Sequence record: MW598459
Length of the DNA: 64,000 nt
Strand: one strand, 5' to 3'
DNA from: Escherichia phage vB_EcoM_RZ
Below are positions 32,191-45,752 of this stretch, piece by piece. The position numbers and the translations under genes were made by a program. The notes under the pieces were generated by a model. That model was not told the origin of the DNA, did no database searches, and saw only the letters and a list, made by a program, of their open reading frames with translations. Each line of letters starts with the position of its first letter. The stretch's first letter is position 1.

Positions 32191-32466
32191 TTATAATCTT
32201 TTAAATTTGAAACAATACATTGCAAATAAATCAGAAAAATGTCTATCAACCCATATTCTTTGCACTGGACTAGTAACAGTCAACATATAATGTGATTTTT
32301 GTAAATTTATTCCATTTTTATTCGGGCATTCTTTATTAACAGAATGGTACGTGCTTGCTACTATTTCAATTTCCCTTTCATATCTCTCGCTATCTGTTTG
32401 TGTGGGGATAAATGCAATCCCAGCAATAACAAAAATAGAGATATACGTCCAAACCTTGTATATCAT
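32191..32466 (-). CDS. Hypothetical membrane protein (91 aa)
   Basis: Track ORF; hydrophobic N-terminus. Confidence 0.4.
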   Translation of the reverse strand: MIYKVWTYISIFVIAGIAFIPTQTDSERYEREIEIVASTYHSVNKECPNKNGINLQKSHYMLTVTSPVQRIWVDRHFSDLFAMYCFKFKRL

Positions 32467-32473
32467 GCGAACC

Positions 32474-33046
32474 TCAGCTTGTTAATTCGAGCCAATGTTT
32501 CCTGCATAAAGATACGTACGATTCATTCCCACCGACTAACACTTGCTCGCCGTCCTTTACAGCAGCACCGTCGATTACTCGCGCGGTCATGGTTGCTTTC
32601 CGGCCGCAATGACAGACGCCCTTTAATTCAACCAGTTTATCCGAAATAGCCAGAAGTCTGGCTGAACCGGGAAATAATTGACCCCGAAAATCTGTTCTTA
32701 ACCCGTAACACATAACGGGGATATTGTAATTATCAACCACTTGAGCTAACTGGTCAATTTGCTCTGGTAACAAAAATTGAGCTTCATCGACCAGGACACA
32801 ATGGATATCCTTTTGAGACTCGGCCCATTTATAGAATTCAAACAGGTTCATGTCGGCCGTTACCAGGTTTGCTTCCTGGCTAATACCAATACGTGATTTG
32901 ATTTCAGATTCCGAGTCCCGATTATCAATAACAGGTTTTAGCAAAAGCACACTCATTCCACGCTCTTTATAGGAATAAGCTGCAGTCAGCAATGAAGCTG
33001 TTTTGCCTGCATTCATTGCTGCGTAATGATAAATTAAACTCGCCAT
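32474..33046 (-). CDS. tk: Thymidine kinase (190 aa)
   Basis: Track ORF; P-loop AAMNAGKTASLL, VDEAQF, C-terminal zinc ribbon CHCG...C; T4 tk-like. Confidence 0.9.
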   Translation of the reverse strand: MASLIYHYAAMNAGKTASLLTAAYSYKERGMSVLLLKPVIDNRDSESEIKSRIGISQEANLVTADMNLFEFYKWAESQKDIHCVLVDEAQFLLPEQIDQLAQVVDNYNIPVMCYGLRTDFRGQLFPGSARLLAISDKLVELKGVCHCGRKATMTARVIDGAAVKDGEQVLVGGNESYVSLCRKHWLELTS

Positions 33047-38893: not shown

Positions 38894-39116
38894 GTTTCCA
38901 TGATTGGTTAAAAATATCGCTCATTAAAAATTCAAGTCTATTTTCCAATGAAGGGCTTTCACTACTAGAAACTTGAACCATGTAGTCAGCAATAGGTCGG
39001 AACATATCCAAGTCAGTTTCTAAATCATCTTTGATTTTCTCTTCTGATGTACCTGTATCATAGGAATACAGATAAGAATCGCATGACTCAGATTTAATAT
39101 AAATTGCAATACTCAT
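38880..39116 (-). CDS. Hypothetical acidic protein (78 aa)
   Basis: Track ORF. Confidence 0.4.
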   Translation of the reverse strand: MSIAIYIKSESCDSYLYSYDTGTSEEKIKDDLETDLDMFRPIADYMVQVSSSESPSLENRLEFLMSDIFNQSWKRDDE

Positions 39117-39700
39117 TTACGACATTCCTCAATAAAGGAGTTCAATGTATTTTTCTTAGTGATATCGTCATATACCTTTTTAACTTTAGAAATACGAAAA
39201 GGTACTTCAATAACCATAGTCCATAAAAATGATGCAATAAGCCCAGCGAGAGCAGTAGAAAAGCACGCACCCATTACAGCTACGGGTGCTTCATTTTTGC
39301 CTGTCAAGAAAAACCACAGGAATGGTAAAAATAAGATTCCAGCCCAGGCATAAAACCTGGAACAAATTAACTTATCAAATTCATCACTCCAGGTACGAAA
39401 TCCATATTTCTTGCTATAAGAAATTAATGGGTCGGGTGTCTGTTCTTTGAGCGGTTCTGGTTGATGCCCATTAATGATGTATCCCATTTTATATTCCTTA
39501 ATTAAAAGCTCTTTCACATGACGATTGCATCGCGACCAATCAACGTTTTCCACCTTGATTCCTTCATCACCATCATCAAGGTTCGCCCAATATTTTTTGG
39601 TAATCATAAATTCGTCTCTTGATACAATTATACCTGTATTTTCTGCCCGGCGGATGAAGTTTACATCAACACCCATGCAGCCAGTTTCATAAAGGGCCAT
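39113..39700 (-). CDS. Hypothetical membrane protein (195 aa) with C-terminal FIEEC motif
   Basis: Track ORF; C-terminal TM pair then ..NSFIEECRK. Confidence 0.45.
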   Translation of the reverse strand: MALYETGCMGVDVNFIRRAENTGIIVSRDEFMITKKYWANLDDGDEGIKVENVDWSRCNRHVKELLIKEYKMGYIINGHQPEPLKEQTPDPLISYSKKYGFRTWSDEFDKLICSRFYAWAGILFLPFLWFFLTGKNEAPVAVMGACFSTALAGLIASFLWTMVIEVPFRISKVKKVYDDITKKNTLNSFIEECRK

Positions 39701-40386
39701 TACCAGCCCTCCATAGGGAATTCCAGATATACTTGAGCATTAACGCGGATTTCATTTGTAATCTTTTTAACACGGTCGGTATTACGAGACACACGACCAA
39801 ACCAGCGCCAACCGTTACTTACTGCGCGAGAACCCGTATGCCATGTCTGCCAATCAAACTGGAGCAACGTGCGGTCAGGAGCATCCCACTTGGTTAATTC
39901 ATTGGACTCAATTTTTTCCAGAACTTCTTTATGCCACTGGCGATAGATAAGTTCGCCTTCAGGAATCTGACTAAATTGCGCAGTTCCGGTTGCAAAATAA
40001 GTAGGACACACATCAGCGTTAACAAGACCAAGAATATGTTCAGAATGGTAACGAGGATTGTCATAATCAGGTTGCCCTGCAGTAATAAAGTGTTGACCAA
40101 CCGGAATATCCGGGCGTGGTACATCGTCATGGTGATAACCTGGGATAGCAGGATACCAACCAGGCATCAGCATATGAACCCGAGAATCAAATACAACCTG
40201 GTCGGTGTTCCAATCATCCGGCAGACTCATAATAAAGCTACGAGTAATAGGACCGCCATTGTCAAAAGCGAAAGCCAATGAGCTGTTGAAGAACATAGTT
40301 TCGTTTTTGATTTTATCATTAGAAATTTTACCAGCGAAACTGCCTACTGCATGAGCTTGAGAATTAAAAGTTTTTGGACCGTTCAT
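39700..40386 (-). CDS. Hypothetical protein (228 aa)
   Basis: Track ORF. Confidence 0.5.
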   Translation of the reverse strand: MNGPKTFNSQAHAVGSFAGKISNDKIKNETMFFNSSLAFAFDNGGPITRSFIMSLPDDWNTDQVVFDSRVHMLMPGWYPAIPGYHHDDVPRPDIPVGQHFITAGQPDYDNPRYHSEHILGLVNADVCPTYFATGTAQFSQIPEGELIYRQWHKEVLEKIESNELTKWDAPDRTLLQFDWQTWHTGSRAVSNGWRWFGRVSRNTDRVKKITNEIRVNAQVYLEFPMEGW

Positions 40387-40445
40387 AATATTTTCCTCAT
40401 TGATTGTGGGACCATTGTGTCATAGCCCCACTTGGATGTACACAA

Positions 40446-41405
40446 TTATTTTTCGAAAGGGCGAATTAAATGCTGGTTAGCTTTGAAACGTTTAACATAG
40501 TCTTCGTGACCCAGGGTGTTGTACATATTAACCACTTCCTGATAATGTTCCCAGGCATACTCACGGAACCATCCAGAAGTAATGGAGGTACAGACTTTTT
40601 CCAGCGCAATATGGAAGCTCACGGATGGAGAGATATTGAACTCATTGGGAACCTGCGAACGCTCCAGAGCGAGTACACATGCTTCTTCATAAACCCCTGC
40701 CAGTTTAATAATCTCAGGGAGTGCTTCAAATTTTTCACGCGAGGTCATAACTTCTGAATCATCCTTCATATAGAACTTATATGCAGGTTTATCAGCAAGC
40801 GCCACGGCCTCGTGGATGGAGTCATGGTCAAGGGTATAGATTGTATCATTAAAGAAAGTTTTCTTGCCCACGTCTAGTTTAGGGTGACTATATGACAATG
40901 TTTCTGCCTGGCGCTGCAGCATGATTTTATGCAGTTCGTCATTAAGAACAACACCCTTATTGCGAAGGTAATTAATATGACTCATTGTCTTCAGGAAGAA
41001 TGGATTGTTCTTCAGGTAACGATGAGACAGTTTAATTGCCAGACAAATATCAGGAGTCGCCCAATAGAAACCTGTAAGACGGTCTTTCTTAATATGATTT
41101 TCAGCGTATTTCAAGAGACGATAACTTGAGGTGAAATCTTCATCTTGAAGCTCACCAGTAATTTCTCGTACGTTAGTCAGGGCACGGACAATATAAGCTT
41201 CAAAATAGGTTTCTTTGCCATTGTACATACATTTAAAAGCTTGGACATCAGGGTTATCCACAGGAACATGAGCACCGAACATACGTGCTTTAAAGTGGTT
41301 CCAGGAGCCCTGGTCAGCGATAAAGTCCCAATCAGAGTTTTCAATTTTCTGACTTTCAATCAGACCAGCGTTATGTAATGCACGAGAACCAATAACTAAC
41401 ATCAT
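40446..41405 (-). CDS. Hypothetical protein (319 aa) with N-terminal GS...SDWDF nucleotidyltransferase-like motif
   Basis: Track ORF; MMLVIGSRALHNAGLIESQKIENSDWDF; early promoter upstream. Confidence 0.5.
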   Translation of the reverse strand: MMLVIGSRALHNAGLIESQKIENSDWDFIADQGSWNHFKARMFGAHVPVDNPDVQAFKCMYNGKETYFEAYIVRALTNVREITGELQDEDFTSSYRLLKYAENHIKKDRLTGFYWATPDICLAIKLSHRYLKNNPFFLKTMSHINYLRNKGVVLNDELHKIMLQRQAETLSYSHPKLDVGKKTFFNDTIYTLDHDSIHEAVALADKPAYKFYMKDDSEVMTSREKFEALPEIIKLAGVYEEACVLALERSQVPNEFNISPSVSFHIALEKVCTSITSGWFREYAWEHYQEVVNMYNTLGHEDYVKRFKANQHLIRPFEK

Positions 41406-41433
41406 AATATTTTCCTCATTAGTTGACGAGATA

Positions 41434-41463
41434 ATGATACTACGTTTCTTTAGACTTGTATAC
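41434..41463 (-). promoter_or_regulatory. Early promoter (-35 GTATAC, 18 bp, -10 TATCAT)
   Basis: Read on minus strand upstream of ORF 40446..41405. Confidence 0.5.
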
Positions 41464-41506
41464 TAAATCTTGTACATAATTTTCTTATCACATCCTTGTG
41501 ATTAAA

Positions 41507-41734
41507 TTATTTTCCTAACGAAATACGAGTAGGTTTTTTGCCAAAATATTCTTCATAAGAACCATCTAAACGACCCGCTTTAGACCGACAGTATGAATCG
41601 TACTTTTTGTAATAAGTCATCTCAGTATTATAACGCGGGTGTCTATCAGCCATAATAATACTTAATGGCCAACCTTTGGCATAATCGCGAAGACCATTTA
41701 TTTTACTAATGTATCTTTTCTTTAATTTTAGCAT
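41507..41734 (-). CDS. Hypothetical basic protein (75 aa)
   Basis: Track ORF. Confidence 0.4.
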   Translation of the reverse strand: MLKLKKRYISKINGLRDYAKGWPLSIIMADRHPRYNTEMTYYKKYDSYCRSKAGRLDGSYEEYFGKKPTRISLGK

Positions 41735-41952
41735 GAGCTCGGGTACCAGATTTTACCGTCGGCGCGGGCAACGAAGGTACGACCAGCTTCTTCGCCGTAA
41801 CAAGAGCTATTCAGCCAATCTTCAAGACGAACTTCACCGTCATAATCATCTAGCTCAACACCAAAATCCTGAGCAGAAGCCATATCTTTTACTTTCTTAT
41901 ACAGGGCAGCCAGTTCAAGAGCAGCTTTTTCTAATTCGTTAATATCAGTCAT
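41728..41952 (-). CDS. Small acidic protein, paralog family member (C-terminus ..WYPSSC)
   Basis: Track ORF; C-terminal motif related to the three upstream paralogs. Confidence 0.45.
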   Translation of the reverse strand: MTDINELEKAALELAALYKKVKDMASAQDFGVELDDYDGEVRLEDWLNSSCYGEEAGRTFVARADGKIWYPSSC

Positions 41953-41961
41953 TTTTATTCC

Positions 41962-42174
41962 TTAGCATTCGTAAGAGGAGGACACCCAAGAGGTACCACT
42001 AATTGTAATACAACCATTATAAAGCGTAATATGTCGTTCTAGGTCACGAACACCATCAATGTAGATATCAGCTTCTTCGCGTTCTTCTTTACAAATCTGG
42101 ATAACGTTTTCAATAGCTGCCGCGGCAGTACGGATTGCACAATCTAATTCACGAGACATATAATTCCTTAACAT
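41962..42174 (-). CDS. Small protein, paralog family member (C-terminus ..SWVSSSYEC)
   Basis: Track ORF. Confidence 0.45.
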   Translation of the reverse strand: MLRNYMSRELDCAIRTAAAAIENVIQICKEEREEADIYIDGVRDLERHITLYNGCITISGTSWVSSSYEC

Positions 42175-42449
42175 TCAGAAGAGGAGGACACCCAACCGCC
42201 ATTTTCCAGGTCAGTTGTATAGTCATGAGTGTTAACAATAGCCCATTCAGGATGGCCATATTCTTCCCAATGGGCAAGGTCAGCTTTCAAGGCACCAGGA
42301 GAATAATAGTCACCGCCCATACCGCGAGCAGGGTATATATTAAAATGAGTCTCATATTTGTTTGCAATTTCCTCGGCACGCCGAATAGCTTTATGGATGT
42401 CATTTACTGCGTTAGCCAGTTCTTTATTTTTACGGTAATCATTCATCAT
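42168..42449 (-). CDS. Small protein, paralog family member (C-terminus ..GWVSSSSEC)
   Basis: Track ORF. Confidence 0.45.
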   Translation of the reverse strand: MMNDYRKNKELANAVNDIHKAIRRAEEIANKYETHFNIYPARGMGGDYYSPGALKADLAHWEEYGHPEWAIVNTHDYTTDLENGGWVSSSSEC

Positions 42450-42458
42450 AACGTTTCC

Positions 42459-42749
42459 TTAGCACATTGCCGAAGAGGAGACCCAAGCACCAACTGTAAC
42501 GACACCGTTTTCAACTTCACCGCCGTTGTTTTCAATTTCATCTTTAAACCACTGGGAGCATTCATAACCGACAGGATAATATGTACGGCCTGAACCATAA
42601 TCACCGGTACCGAATTGGATACCATATTCATCTGCGATTTCTTCGCAGTGTTTTTCAATTTCAGAGGTCTTATTTAGAAGAGAATAGATGGCTTTTTCTG
42701 CAGATTTCTCATCATAATACTTGGGGATAGCAATTTCAATTTTATTCAT
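42459..42749 (-). CDS. Small protein, paralog family member (C-terminus ..AWVSSSAMC)
   Basis: Track ORF. Confidence 0.45.
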   Translation of the reverse strand: MNKIEIAIPKYYDEKSAEKAIYSLLNKTSEIEKHCEEIADEYGIQFGTGDYGSGRTYYPVGYECSQWFKDEIENNGGEVENGVVTVGAWVSSSAMC

Positions 42750-43099
42750 GATTTACATTCCTTAATAAAGGTTTCAAGGTCATTACGTTTTGTTTTGTCT
42801 AGGAACTTATTATACTCAGCCATTGCCGAAGCATATCTCTTACGGCTAGGAGCATTCACTGCATTTGTGTGACAGATATCATAAACAACCGGGATAAAAT
42901 AAGCCACAACAGCCGGAGCAATTATCATAAAGAAGCCCATCTCAATAGGCATGACTCCCTCGATTGCAGCCATAACCGTGGTCATTACCAGACCAACCAA
43001 ACCACCGAGCATACCGGTGACAATTCCCAATAATAAATTGCCGCCAATATCATATTCAGCCAATTGATAAACATGTGATGCAAGACTAGGCCGTTCCAT
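42746..43099 (-). CDS. Hypothetical membrane protein with C-terminal FIKEC motif
   Basis: Track ORF 42746..43192 trimmed to internal ATG at 43099 adjacent to the upstream stop; several TM helices. Confidence 0.4.
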   Translation of the reverse strand: MERPSLASHVYQLAEYDIGGNLLLGIVTGMLGGLVGLVMTTVMAAIEGVMPIEMGFFMIIAPAVVAYFIPVVYDICHTNAVNAPSRKRYASAMAEYNKFLDKTKRNDLETFIKECKS

Positions 43100-43445
43100 T
43101 ACGAACCTCCTTAATAAATTCTTCGGCACATTTAATTTTGTGCTCTTCTTGTAGGGAAACACATTTTTGTTCCCACTCTTTAACTCGTCCACGATATCCT
43201 TTATTCATATGATTTTGATGCCATACATTTATCAAAATCATACTCAGGACTGTAATAAAAGGAGCTGCGATTATTAGCGCCCAGGCAACTCCAACACTAA
43301 TGATATCCATATCCCCACAAACCACCATCATTATAACCCCAACAATGCACATGGACAAAGCTCCAAATGGAGGCATAAGGTCTTTATCAATCTTGTCTGC
43401 GTATACAAATTTTTCTGGTTTACTTGGCAGATATAACGTTCGCAT
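43086..43445 (-). CDS. Hypothetical membrane protein with C-terminal EEFIKEV motif
   Basis: Track ORF 43086..43481 trimmed to internal ATG at 43445. Confidence 0.4.
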   Translation of the reverse strand: MRTLYLPSKPEKFVYADKIDKDLMPPFGALSMCIVGVIMMVVCGDMDIISVGVAWALIIAAPFITVLSMILINVWHQNHMNKGYRGRVKEWEQKCVSLQEEHKIKCAEEFIKEVRNGTA

Positions 43446-43992
43446 TTTGAACCCCTTTAGCATATTCACGACATTCAGCAATAAAACGATTAAGCTTACG
43501 TTTCCGTTTACGACCCTCTAATGTATACTCAGCCGCCAAATCAAGAAGCTCATCTTTATCATAATTTTTAATATCAGTATAAGTTGGGCGGCGGTCAACC
43601 ATTCCAAAGTGGTCACCATTTTCCAACATCAAATAACACACCAAATGGTCATCATCGTCCGCATTAATAAGCTGCTTATAATCACTTGGTTCATTTAACG
43701 CATACACAGAATAACTCAGCCCAGCGAATTCCACTCGTTGAATACCCAGATTTACGTCAATAATTTCCAAGGCATCTGCAAAAGAAAGGTCTTCAGCTAA
43801 AGCAAAAATAAAAGGCAATTTGGTAGTATCGCCGCGACTTGTTGTTCTTCTTAAGAAATCATTGGAATAGCCCAAGTCGCGGCGGATTCTATAAAGAACT
43901 GTGTTAGTTTCAGTGGCAAGACCACTACCGCCAAACCATTCCACATTTGATAAAAGATTATCATATAAAGTCATAATTTTCTCCTCTCCCAA
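43420..43992 (-). CDS. Hypothetical protein (190 aa) with basic stretch RKRKRK and FIAEC motif
   Basis: Track ORF. Confidence 0.45.
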   Translation of the reverse strand: MGEEKIMTLYDNLLSNVEWFGGSGLATETNTVLYRIRRDLGYSNDFLRRTTSRGDTTKLPFIFALAEDLSFADALEIIDVNLGIQRVEFAGLSYSVYALNEPSDYKQLINADDDDHLVCYLMLENGDHFGMVDRRPTYTDIKNYDKDELLDLAAEYTLEGRKRKRKLNRFIAECREYAKGVQNANVISAK

Positions 43993-44016
43993 TTAGGGGG
44001 CTTTACCCCCTTTATC

Positions 44017-44610
44017 TTACTTAAGTGAATTAATGTATTCTTCAATGTCAGCGGACGTGGTATCCACACCAACCTGTGGGCCTTTGAAGGTTTCAACACG
44101 CATCAGAGTGTCTTCAATATCAATCTTAGTCAATGCAGCGATTTCAACAACATCATCTGCAGTCGCAATACCCAGGGCAGATACCTTACGGGTTTCGCGG
44201 ATGTATTCCAGTTTAACAGCTAGTTCCTGACGAGAATCATCCAACTCTTTAACTTTCAATTTAATTTCATTACGCATTTCAACATAATCATCTGCCTTCT
44301 TACGAAGTTGTTTAGCAGTACGACGATACAGGAGACCCAGTTTAGCATGGACCTGGACATCCGCACCATCAGCAATCAGTTTGCGGATTTCACGCTCTTT
44401 TGAAGCGGCGAGTTGGTCTTTTTCATTCGCTAACTCACGGATGCGTTTTTCTTCATTAACCGACTTAACGTGGGCGGTCTGGAGCTCAGTAATCTTGTCA
44501 ATCAGGGTAGACGCTGCTTGAGTATATTGGTCTTCAATAGACAGATTTTTTGTCATTGCAGTACCCAGTTTGGAGCGGATGAATTCAACAAGTTTCTTTA
44601 AAGTATTCAT
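44017..44610 (-). CDS. Coiled-coil protein (197 aa), possibly PspA/IM30-like
   Basis: Track ORF; heptad-rich throughout; family assignment tentative. Confidence 0.45.
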
Positions 44611-44676: not shown

Positions 44677-44706
44677 ATTATGCCTTAAAGCAGGGGGCTT
44701 GTATAC
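44677..44706 (-). promoter_or_regulatory. Early promoter (-35 GTATAC, 18 bp, -10 CATAAT) adjacent to GGGGG/CCCCC hairpin
   Basis: Read on minus strand upstream of ORF 44017..44610. Confidence 0.5.
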
Positions 44707-44718
44707 CCCCTTTTTTAA

Positions 44719-45162
44719 TTAAATTTCAAATTCTTTGCGGAAGTTGGAAGCATAAGACTGAACTGACGCTTTGTTGAATCCAAACTCACGCACAATCATA
44801 TCAATAACAGCTCTGCGAGCAGCACCATTAGACATATTAACAGTTTTGAACATATCATAGCATAAATCTTTGTTGCTCATACCGGAGCGTTTAGGTGCCT
44901 TACGCTCAGCTTTTGGTTCAGCTTTAGGAGTAGGTTTAACTTCTGGGTTAACCTGTCCATCATTCAGACCTTTAAAAATTTTACCTGCCAGAGTTGCCAG
45001 TTTAGCAGCTTCGCCACGAGTGATACCAAATACTGCCGGGTTAAATGAAATACCTTCAGCTGTCAGACGTTTGAAGAACATACGTGCTGCGGATTGTGCT
45101 TCAGCTTCAGAAGAGTTGTTTAATGCCAGTTTAACATACTTAACCAGTTTTGAAGTTTTCAT
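44719..45162 (-). CDS. Hypothetical protein (147 aa), paralog of 45246..45671
   Basis: Track ORF 44719..45213 trimmed to ATG at 45162 (MKTSKLVKY...); shared C-terminal domain ..NGAARRAVID..QSYASNFRK. Confidence 0.5.
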   Translation of the reverse strand: MKTSKLVKYVKLALNNSSEAEAQSAARMFFKRLTAEGISFNPAVFGITRGEAAKLATLAGKIFKGLNDGQVNPEVKPTPKAEPKAERKAPKRSGMSNKDLCYDMFKTVNMSNGAARRAVIDMIVREFGFNKASVQSYASNFRKEFEI

Positions 45163-45204
45163 TTTATTATCCCGTTTGTTTATTTGGTAACTCAGTATGG
45201 GATA

Positions 45205-45234
45205 ATTATACATTATCCCACCTGGAAGTAAAAC
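45205..45234 (-). promoter_or_regulatory. Early promoter (-10 TATAAT inside hairpin TGGGATAAT/ATTATCCCA; weak -35)
   Basis: Read on minus strand upstream of ORF 44719..45162. Confidence 0.4.
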
Positions 45235-45245
45235 ACTTTTCTCAA

Positions 45246-45671
45246 TTATTTTTGAGCTTTGCGGAAGTTGGATGCATATGACTGAACAACAGTCTTTTTG
45301 ATATCATGGGTGGTAACCAGAACATCAATCAGAGCGCGACGAGCTGCATTATCATTCATATCAATTTCTGCAAATGCCTGGAAGCAAATGTCACGAGCGT
45401 TACCAGATTTGGACTGGATTTTTTCTTCTTTAACTTCTTCAATTGGGAATTCAATCATTTCAGCTTGGATTAATTCAATGATAGATTCTTTTGACTGTTT
45501 GGTGTTTACCTTCAGTTCAGAATTAAGGGACTTGGCAATGGCAACAATCTGGGTTGAAGTCAGATGGATAAGTGCATCTTCACGAATGCAGATTTCACAT
45601 ACTTCGTCAGCAACCATTTTGTTAGTGATGCGGGTAACAGAGAATGCAGAGGTCAGGGTCAGAAAGTTCAT
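45246..45671 (-). CDS. Hypothetical protein (141 aa), paralog of 44719..45162
   Basis: Track ORF 45246..45752 trimmed to ATG at 45671 (MNFLTLTSAF...); C-terminus ..NDNAARRALID..QSYASNFRK. Confidence 0.5.
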   Translation of the reverse strand: MNFLTLTSAFSVTRITNKMVADEVCEICIREDALIHLTSTQIVAIAKSLNSELKVNTKQSKESIIELIQAEMIEFPIEEVKEEKIQSKSGNARDICFQAFAEIDMNDNAARRALIDVLVTTHDIKKTVVQSYASNFRKAQK

Positions 45672-45722
45672 TTTATTTCTCCAAAGTTTTGTTTGATTCA
45701 GTGTGTAACTCAGTATGGAATC

Positions 45723-45752
45723 ATTATGCACCCGGTCAATCTGGATGTACAC
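45723..45752 (-). promoter_or_regulatory. Early promoter (-35 GTGTAC, 18 bp, -10 CATAAT)
   Basis: Read on minus strand upstream of ORF 45246..45671. Confidence 0.5.

Follow-up and report, generated by a model that had tools for sequence, protein, structure and literature searches.

A conserved C-terminal motif, probably a short amphipathic helix, on membrane and soluble proteins encoded between e.6 and the lysozyme gene of T4-like phages

Several of the proteins encoded between e.6 and the lysozyme gene e of phage T4 and its relatives are tied together by a short C-terminal motif that is undescribed in database families or in the searched literature, is strongly selected, and is specific to this locus. 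It is analyzed here from the corresponding segment of Escherichia phage vB_EcoM_RZ (64,000 nucleotides (nt) of sequence record MW598459, the whole of which is referred to as the window), where it ends four minus-strand open reading frames (ORFs), designated A to D. The motif is probably a short amphipathic helix, confined to this one locus and, judging from alignments, spread over ~25 protein families of the Straboviridae. It is found on proteins with two predicted transmembrane (TM) helices and also on several unrelated soluble families in related phages. A prior sequence-only reading of this DNA had described a family of membrane proteins sharing a C-terminal F-I-x-E-C ending; that reading is incomplete, since soluble proteins carry the motif too, although the paralogy of three of its members and the predicted cytoplasmic location of their tails stand.

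By sequence, the window is the genome of a Gaprivervirus (T4-like, Tevenvirinae), as are Escherichia phage DK-13, to which its segment 38900-44700 is 97% identical, and Shigella phage SP18 (~91%). All of the genes discussed, from e.6 through denV, are encoded on the minus strand. In order of transcription, e.6 is followed by D, C and B, then by four small ORFs (41728-42749), a DUF7275/DUF7277 protein (40446-41405) and a conserved protein of 228 amino acids (aa; 39700-40386), and finally by A, a 78-aa ORF, nudE, the lysozyme gene e and denV. The principal features, with the motifs as read from the translation, are the following.

44017-44610, minus strand: e.6 homologue (197 aa; phrog_1203)
43420-43974, minus strand: ORF D, the protein at the e.5 position (184 aa; phrog_8788, E 9.2e-111)
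43468-43485, minus strand: motif FIAECR of D
43086-43445, minus strand: ORF C, e.4 homologue (119 aa; phrog_2604, E 2.2e-45)
43101-43118, minus strand: motif FIKEVR of C
42746-43099, minus strand: ORF B, e.3 homologue (117 aa; phrog_2330, E 1.2e-45), annotated e.3 in phage VR7
42752-42769, minus strand: motif FIKECK of B
39113-39700, minus strand: ORF A, e.2 homologue (195 aa; phrog_2203, E 3.7e-65), annotated e.2 in SP18, VR7 and RB69
39119-39136, minus strand: motif FIEECR of A

The four ORFs are thus orthologues or positional equivalents of T4 e.2-e.5 (PHROGs 2203, 2330, 2604 and 8788), in the same gene order and with the same tail in e.3, e.4 and e.5. Three of them are small predicted membrane proteins. 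ORF A consists of a predicted cytoplasmic N-terminal domain, two TM helices (residues ~116-134, nt 39299-39355, and ~141-165, nt 39206-39280, placed by hydropathy and charge) and a 27-aa basic tail ending NSFIEECRK. ORF B has its TM helices at residues ~21-45 and ~55-77, followed by a 40-aa basic tail ending ETFIKECKS; in ORF C they lie at ~27-44 and ~49-75, and the 44-aa tail ends EEFIKEVRNGTA, with valine replacing cysteine. The hydropathy maximum (Kyte-Doolittle, 19-mer) is 1.9-2.4 for these three proteins, and the tails contain 8-9 basic residues (K+R) where the inter-helix loops contain 0-1. This disparity is the basis for the prediction that A, B and C are N-in/C-in proteins whose tails lie in the cytoplasm, so that the multiple TM helices and cytoplasmic tails previously assigned to three of the four proteins are borne out by hydropathy and charge, with two hydrophobic helices in each.

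ORF D is of another kind. Its hydropathy maximum is 1.27, with no hydrophobic segment; its tail reads NRFIAECREYAKGVQNANVISAK, and a predicted C-terminal helix (residues ~140-183) carries NRFIAECREYAK, this secondary structure being drawn from a low-confidence AlphaFold2 (AF2) model based on 18 close homologues (mean predicted local distance difference test score (pLDDT) 37). Translation was earlier taken to begin at TTG 43992, which is a mechanical ORF start; the ATG at 43974, preceded at 6-8 nt by a GGAGAGGAG Shine-Dalgarno sequence and annotated as the start in relatives, is likelier. By its sequence, D is a soluble, fast-evolving protein that has only the tail in common with A, B and C.

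The endings given for the four ORFs in the sequence-only reading are correct. In its general form the motif is hydrophobic-x-x-[FW]-[IV]-x-x-[C or hydrophobic]-[RK], located no more than ~30 residues from the C-terminus, and all four ORFs fit it. The more restrictive pattern F-[IV]-x-E-[CV]-[RK] has four matches among the 119 putative genes of the window, exclusively in these ORFs and exclusively in their tails, against 0.011 expected from composition-preserving shuffles, not one of 20,000 of which reaches four. Pairwise BLASTP comparison places the motifs in equivalent positions: B and C align over 84 residues up to the motif (E 5e-6), B and A over the last 19 residues (E 2e-4), and D and T4 e.5 over 15 tail residues (E 2e-4). 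An alignment of the tails, which might have dissolved the proposed similarity, instead establishes it as positionally equivalent and statistically significant.

The same tail is readily recognized in T4, where e.3 contains KEFVIDCRKIK, e.4 KFVKESRCKSQS and e.5 KFVKECREYVK. A six-frame scan of the T4 genome (153,974 residues) with the core motif, defined as [FW][IV]xxC[RK], yields just three matches, one in e.5, one in e.3 and one in a frame, missing from the annotation, that holds the C-terminal end of e.2. For a wider sample, 39 loci were assembled: 34 viral contigs surrounding e.6 homologues of 51-98% identity, together with RB69, a Klebsiella phage, VR7, T4 and the window. Among the 1,348 ORFs of these loci the core motif occurs 126 times, every time within the last 28 residues, and at none of 117,630 internal positions. 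The shuffles, the whole-genome T4 scan and this positional test together rule out a chance origin. The proteins that bear the motif fall into ~25 BLAST clusters, most of them two-TM proteins; soluble families are also represented, three of them at the e.5 position and several others made up of small proteins.

The presence of the third T4 match outside the annotated e.2 is due to a truncation. The reference T4 e.2 (102 aa; NC_000866 67652-67960) is a truncated form that lacks the tail; relative to the intact 162-aa e.2 of a close relative (contig L024, 8952-9440) it has a 1-nt deletion in a run of A residues and a 1-nt insertion 78 nt downstream. As a result of this pair of indels, the C-terminal TM helix and tail (..NNFITECRKLK) are found in an unannotated frame (contig L005, 473-634, corresponding to NC_000866 67472-67633, minus strand). 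Either T4 e.2 is a genuine pseudogene or the reference carries an old error of sequencing.

A logo of the 121 unique tails is dominated by a few positions: L, I, F or V at -3; F (94%) or W at 0; I or V at +1; K at +2 and E at +3 (42% each); C at +4 (77%); and R (88%) or K at +5. Positions -2 and +3 favor acidic residues, and the motif is succeeded by basic ones. Between 0 and 15 residues separate the motif from the C-terminus, and ~30 in Pseudotevenvirus. The hydrophobic positions (-3, 0, +1 and +4) have the spacing i, i+3, i+4, i+7, which would place them on one face of an α-helix. The hydrophobic moment of the motif 11-mers is high (0.46-0.65, in the 90th-97th percentile within each protein), while their mean hydrophobicity is negative (-0.15 to -0.39, with ~4 hydrophobic positions). 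The F, C and R columns are invariant within the e.2 family, within cluster c15 (an e.5 family), within c33 (D's own family) and within c53, in proteins whose mean column conservation is otherwise 0.37-0.88, the highest of these values being that of c33, which is shallow and composed of nearly identical members. In e.3 the last motif column alternates between R and K, in T4-type e.5 the three columns stand at 0.88, and the e.4-like families retain F, I/V and R but vary at C, with V, I, M or S in the +4 position.

That this constancy resides in the protein is less self-evident than it might seem, in that the motif codons of the window also do service as ribosome-binding sites. The E-E codons of A (GAGGAA) double as the Shine-Dalgarno sequence of the downstream gene, whose ATG overlaps the A stop codon; the K-E codons of B (AAGGAA) act for the next gene in the same way; and AAGGAGGT inside the motif of C is the Shine-Dalgarno sequence of B. 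In all three the x-E codons lie 5-9 nt ahead of the next ATG, and T4 e.4 and e.5 are similarly arranged. It could be argued from these overlaps that the motif is an artefact of dual coding, the translation of an initiation cassette (U-rich tract, Shine-Dalgarno sequence, spacer and overlapping ATG) for a coupled downstream gene, with the RNA being what is conserved; this is extremely improbable, given that the motif of D is free of any such overlap (the Shine-Dalgarno sequence of C, AAAGGGG, lies further downstream), that the downstream Shine-Dalgarno sequence coincides with the x-E codons in just 35 of 117 unique DNA instances (with the R-K codons in ~32, and elsewhere or nowhere in the remainder), and that F, C and R use every synonymous codon. 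Phe is encoded by TTT in 77 and TTC in 33 of these instances and Cys by TGT in 50 and TGC in 42, and all six Arg codons, which differ from one another at up to three bases, are used (CGT 32, AGA 31, AGG 19, CGC 12, CGA 8, CGG 4). The codon spectra and the variable Shine-Dalgarno position largely rule out nucleotide-level conservation, whether as a translation-initiation cassette or as a recombination linker. Selection thus acts on the peptide, and the double use as ribosome-binding site is a local economy in the window, neither the cause of the motif nor general.

Beyond the motif, the proteins sort into separate lines of descent. Comparison of the e.3 and e.4 profiles gives a 95.5% probability of homology over 119 columns, their whole length, and the e.2 membrane module matches other small two-TM families at 88-96% over 80-110 columns (clusters c78, c124 and c53 at 94-96%). 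ORF B cross-matches the e.2 family phrog_2203 (E 0.002) and ORF C cross-matches the e.3 family phrog_2330 (E 0.0018), C being 33% identical to the T4 and RB69 e.4 proteins by tblastn. On profile evidence e.2, e.3 and e.4 are diverged paralogues that share a predicted two-helix membrane hairpin and a basic cytoplasmic tail. The e.5-position families are related among themselves (Klebsiella type with T4 type at 96%, and with D's family at 77% over 109 columns, weak but colinear). Between superfamilies only the 15-21 columns of the tail align in profile-profile comparison (e.2 with e.3, 83%; e.2 with D, 70%), and BLASTP detects no similarity of D to T4 e.5 outside the tail. The proposal of a family of membrane proteins therefore has to be divided: profile and PHROG cross-matches make A, B and C true paralogues, with homology that extends through the hairpin, and D, a soluble protein, belongs with them by its tail alone.

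Twenty-seven homologues of D were found, all close (at least 69% identity), and nine of B. An exhaustive hidden Markov model (HMM) search of 1.84 billion representative proteins with a joint B and C profile returns seven matches, all of the small two-TM plus tail type, and nothing outside that family. A Pfam scan of the four ORFs yields only chance-level matches at E ≤0.1 (AIRC, 0.047; DUF3487, 0.098), the superinfection-immunity family being unmatched; NCBIfam and curated families provide no match for any of the four, and a PDB sequence search with D provides none either. PHROGs and existing annotations treat e.2-e.5 as four unrelated families of unknown function, with neither the shared tail nor the paralogy of e.2, e.3 and e.4 recorded there. 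GenBank labels in phage EAWsc9 (contig L003, 1714-7297) read "holin" for e.2, "MotA-ExbB domain" for e.3, "VirB3" for e.4 and "ubiquitinyl hydrolase 1" for e.5, with "antitoxin" and "transposase" among the neighbors. The labels are unsupported by any Pfam or NCBIfam match.

The genes e.2-e.5 are accessory genes of the e.6-to-lysozyme region in T4-like phages. The order e.6, e.5, e.4, e.3 ... e.2, nudE, e is maintained on one strand in the window, SP18, DK-13, RB69, T4 and the 34 viral contigs. A transposon-based essentiality map of T4 classifies e.2-e.6 as non-essential in the laboratory, with tolerated insertion sites numbering 27/27 in e.2, 37/37 in e.3, 42/43 in e.4, 52/53 in e.5 and 43/43 in e.6 (bioRxiv 10.1101/2025.11.20.689424, supplementary file 7). 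The T4 functional-genomics papers that were searched do not mention e.2-e.6 in their main text, and a full-text literature search that included the literal motif strings found neither a description of the motif nor a function for e.2-e.5.

What gives the locus its coherence is e.6, a gene conserved across 1,109 phage records. Directly after it, in 36 of the 39 loci, comes a gene for a motif-bearing protein without TM helices; of the other three, contig L023 shows a broken frame for e.5, both e.5 and e.6 have been lost from VR7, and in L045 the contig edge lies just inside e.6. Loci with downstream sequence encode between two and seven proteins with the motif (three to seven in all except L023), and these all lie between e.6 and nudE/e, save for a few stray frame matches upstream. 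The association extends to more distant phages. In Aeromonas phage 44RR (Biquartavirus) the protein after e.6 has 262 aa and ends LFVDYCRRTASKK; the e.6-e.5 pair of Erwinia phage FBB1 has RFINMCREAKNETV, and five membrane proteins of that phage have variants of the tail; and Klebsiella phage Kp_GWPR59 (Pseudotevenvirus), in which e.6 is 32% identical and lies beside nrdD in a different neighborhood, has a 316-aa protein with MEKFIHSCKK directly after e.6.

An AF2 model of e.6 (38-sequence alignment; mean pLDDT 75, with 83-97 in the core of the hairpin) predicts an N-terminal amphipathic helix and, after it, two long helices (residues 25-80 and 86-145) that form a hairpin. The top nine matches of this model to the PDB by Foldseek are all Vipp1/IM30 structures (E 4e-3 to 4e-2), with PspA and the archaeal CdvB2 ranking lower. 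Searches of the window protein and 38 homologues against Pfam PspA_IM30 and the solved PspA and Vipp1 chains produce no match at E ≤1, and a profile search against PDB sequences produces none. Because a sequence-level link to PspA is lacking, the resemblance to Vipp1/PspA is suggestive and not established.

A model can be outlined from these facts. The helix of the tail may be a portable cytoplasmic docking or oligomerization element, by means of which several membrane anchors and soluble proteins of the cluster would all attach to a single shared partner where the inner membrane meets the cytoplasm; selection at the protein level holds the helix constant while the surrounding sequence diverges. 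That the tail is a docking helix we put at a little short of an even chance. The partner could be the e.6 product, with its Vipp1/PspA-like predicted fold: conserved synteny makes it the leading candidate, one proposed tentatively and with the balance of probability against it. A more elaborate version makes the F-I-x-x-C-R helix the address tag of a phage-encoded membrane system. The PspA/Vipp1/ESCRT-III superfamily would then have a viral representative in e.6, and the soluble e.5 and an expanding set of two-TM proteins (e.2, e.3, e.4 and others) would recruit or organize e.6 polymers, by way of the shared tail, on the cytoplasmic side of the inner membrane; taken as a whole this is doubtful.

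Several observations weigh against this model. A natural deletion in VR7 (contig L011, 4820-5327) has taken e.6 and e.5 together with the 5' portion of e.4 (of which 88 aa are left), and e.3 and e.2 persist intact with their motif. In the ackermannvirid phiEa2809, which has an e.6-like gene (HMM E 9e-20), the gene that comes after it encodes a one-TM protein that lacks the motif, and the motif is absent from the C-termini of proteins throughout that genome. Nor is a near-invariant Cys common at a position that serves packing alone; it may be a sign of chemistry instead of docking. As a separate matter, fold relatives of e.6 are found in the Ackermannviridae; the phiEa2809 protein (32283-32915) has the N-terminus MNIFKRLFRLF.

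Precedents for the model are of mechanism only. Proteins of the PspA/Vipp1 group are paired with small membrane anchors, PspB/PspC in E. coli and LiaI-LiaH in Bacillus, just as the predicted hairpin of e.6 has, in the adjacent genes, small membrane proteins whose tails are predicted to face the cytoplasm. PspA_IM30, PspB, PspC and LiaI all went unmatched in sequence comparisons, and we know of no counterpart of the F-I-x-x-C-R tail in the PspA, Vipp1 or LiaI-LiaH systems.

Another explanation has the helix lie in the plane of the membrane. The tail would then be a targeting sequence that keeps e.5 and the other soluble proteins bearing it at the inner membrane, and in the two-TM proteins it would rest on the membrane surface. 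The high hydrophobic moment, the alternation of Trp with Phe at position 0, the basic residues that follow, and the occurrence of the tail on soluble proteins encoded beside membrane proteins are all in favor of this explanation. The targeting helices of MinD and FtsA are likewise short, C-terminal and amphipathic, with aromatic and basic residues, on soluble proteins. The tail differs from those helices in its negative mean hydrophobicity, its favored acidic residues, its near-invariant Cys-Arg, and its presence on membrane-integral proteins. With ~4 hydrophobic positions to bind lipid, and with a residue specificity (acidic at -2 and +3, then Cys and Arg) that would not be expected of lipid binding, a purely membrane-associated helix is unlikely.

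The function suggested in the sequence-only reading, superinfection exclusion or interference with the host envelope by the membrane paralogues, is compatible with any of these molecular mechanisms, and with those considered below. Its analogy is with T4 Imm and Sp, which are small, early, laboratory-dispensable membrane or envelope proteins. In its favor are the small size and predicted inner-membrane location of the paralogues, their dispensability in T4 in the laboratory, a variable accessory region in which copies are often gained and lost, and, by T4 precedent, presumably early expression. Against it, the proteins show no similarity to Imm, Sp or any curated family (Pfam, NCBIfam); imm (26.4 kilobases (kb)) and sp (19.8 kb) are located elsewhere in T4 and lack the motif in a six-frame scan; and the searched literature records no phenotype. 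We consider an exclusion role improbable.

Still less probable is a regulatory or degradation tag through which a host or phage protease or chaperone (FtsH, ClpXP or Lon) would jointly control the abundance of these early proteins. A position near the C-terminus, in the cytoplasm and followed by basic residues, on proteins that are otherwise unrelated, is what one might ask of such a tag. Classical C-terminal degrons, on the other hand, depend on the terminal residues, and here the distance to the terminus varies as described above; to our knowledge the tail resembles neither the ssrA tag nor any other known C-terminal degron motif.

The conspicuous cysteine leads to a last alternative: Cys-Arg could be reactive, metal-binding, covalently modified, or engaged in disulfide bridges between tails, with the helix merely presenting it. 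The near-invariance of Cys in the e.2, e.3 and e.5 families and the adjacent Arg are in line with this. The e.4-like families swap Cys for V, I, M or S and retain the other key residues, which fits a position for hydrophobic packing; moreover, each tail has a single Cys, with neither a CxxC arrangement nor a His partner, and by predicted topology it faces the reducing cytoplasm. Cysteine chemistry is accordingly rated very unlikely.

Other features of the region stand apart from the motif. Between e.3 and e.2 lies a second tandem family, phrog_899, represented by four small soluble proteins (42459-42749, 42168-42449, 41962-42174 and 41728-41952, minus strand) that end W-V-S-S-S-x-x-C (GAWVSSSAMC, GGWVSSSSEC, TSWVSSSYEC and KIWYPSSC), endings that recur in related phages. 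The gene for the 228-aa protein (39700-40386, minus strand; phrog_1843, RB69 ORF132c) immediately precedes the e.2-type gene in many of the examined loci, and the C-terminus of the protein (..ITNEIRVNAQVYLEFPMEGW) is nearly invariant where present, which is unusual conservation for a variable region. Similar GC-rich hairpins (AGGGGGC...loop...CCCCCT) flank e.6, at 43995-44011 in the e.6-D intergenic segment and at 44692-44711 just upstream of e.6, and T4 likewise has a GC-rich hairpin after e.6; such hairpins may separate the expression of e.6 from that of the downstream motif-bearing genes. Further upstream, two adjacent ORFs (44719-45213 and 45246-45752, minus strand) have similar C-terminal regions (..RRAVIDMIVREFGFNKASVQSYASNFRKEFEI and ..RRALIDVLVTTHDIKKTVVQSYASNFRKAQK) and look, by sequence, like another tandem pair of paralogues.

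T4 is the best-studied lytic phage, and its e.2-e.6 genes have nonetheless been without function, domain assignment or recognized mutual relationship. One selected C-terminal helix now ties together at least four T4 genes and ~25 Straboviridae families at a single locus that is anchored by the predicted helical-hairpin protein e.6. Should e.6 not be the partner, what is gained is still a curated motif and a better annotation, one that recognizes e.2, e.3 and e.4 as paralogues and the T4 e.2 as a truncated form and that discards several spurious GenBank labels. Should e.6 be the partner, and truly be PspA/Vipp1-like, the locus would encode a phage membrane-maintenance system with a bearing on lysis timing, superinfection and anti-defense. 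The role of such a putative e.6 system would be to protect the host membrane, or to remodel it, in the course of infection, during lysis inhibition, or in response to defenses that attack membranes.

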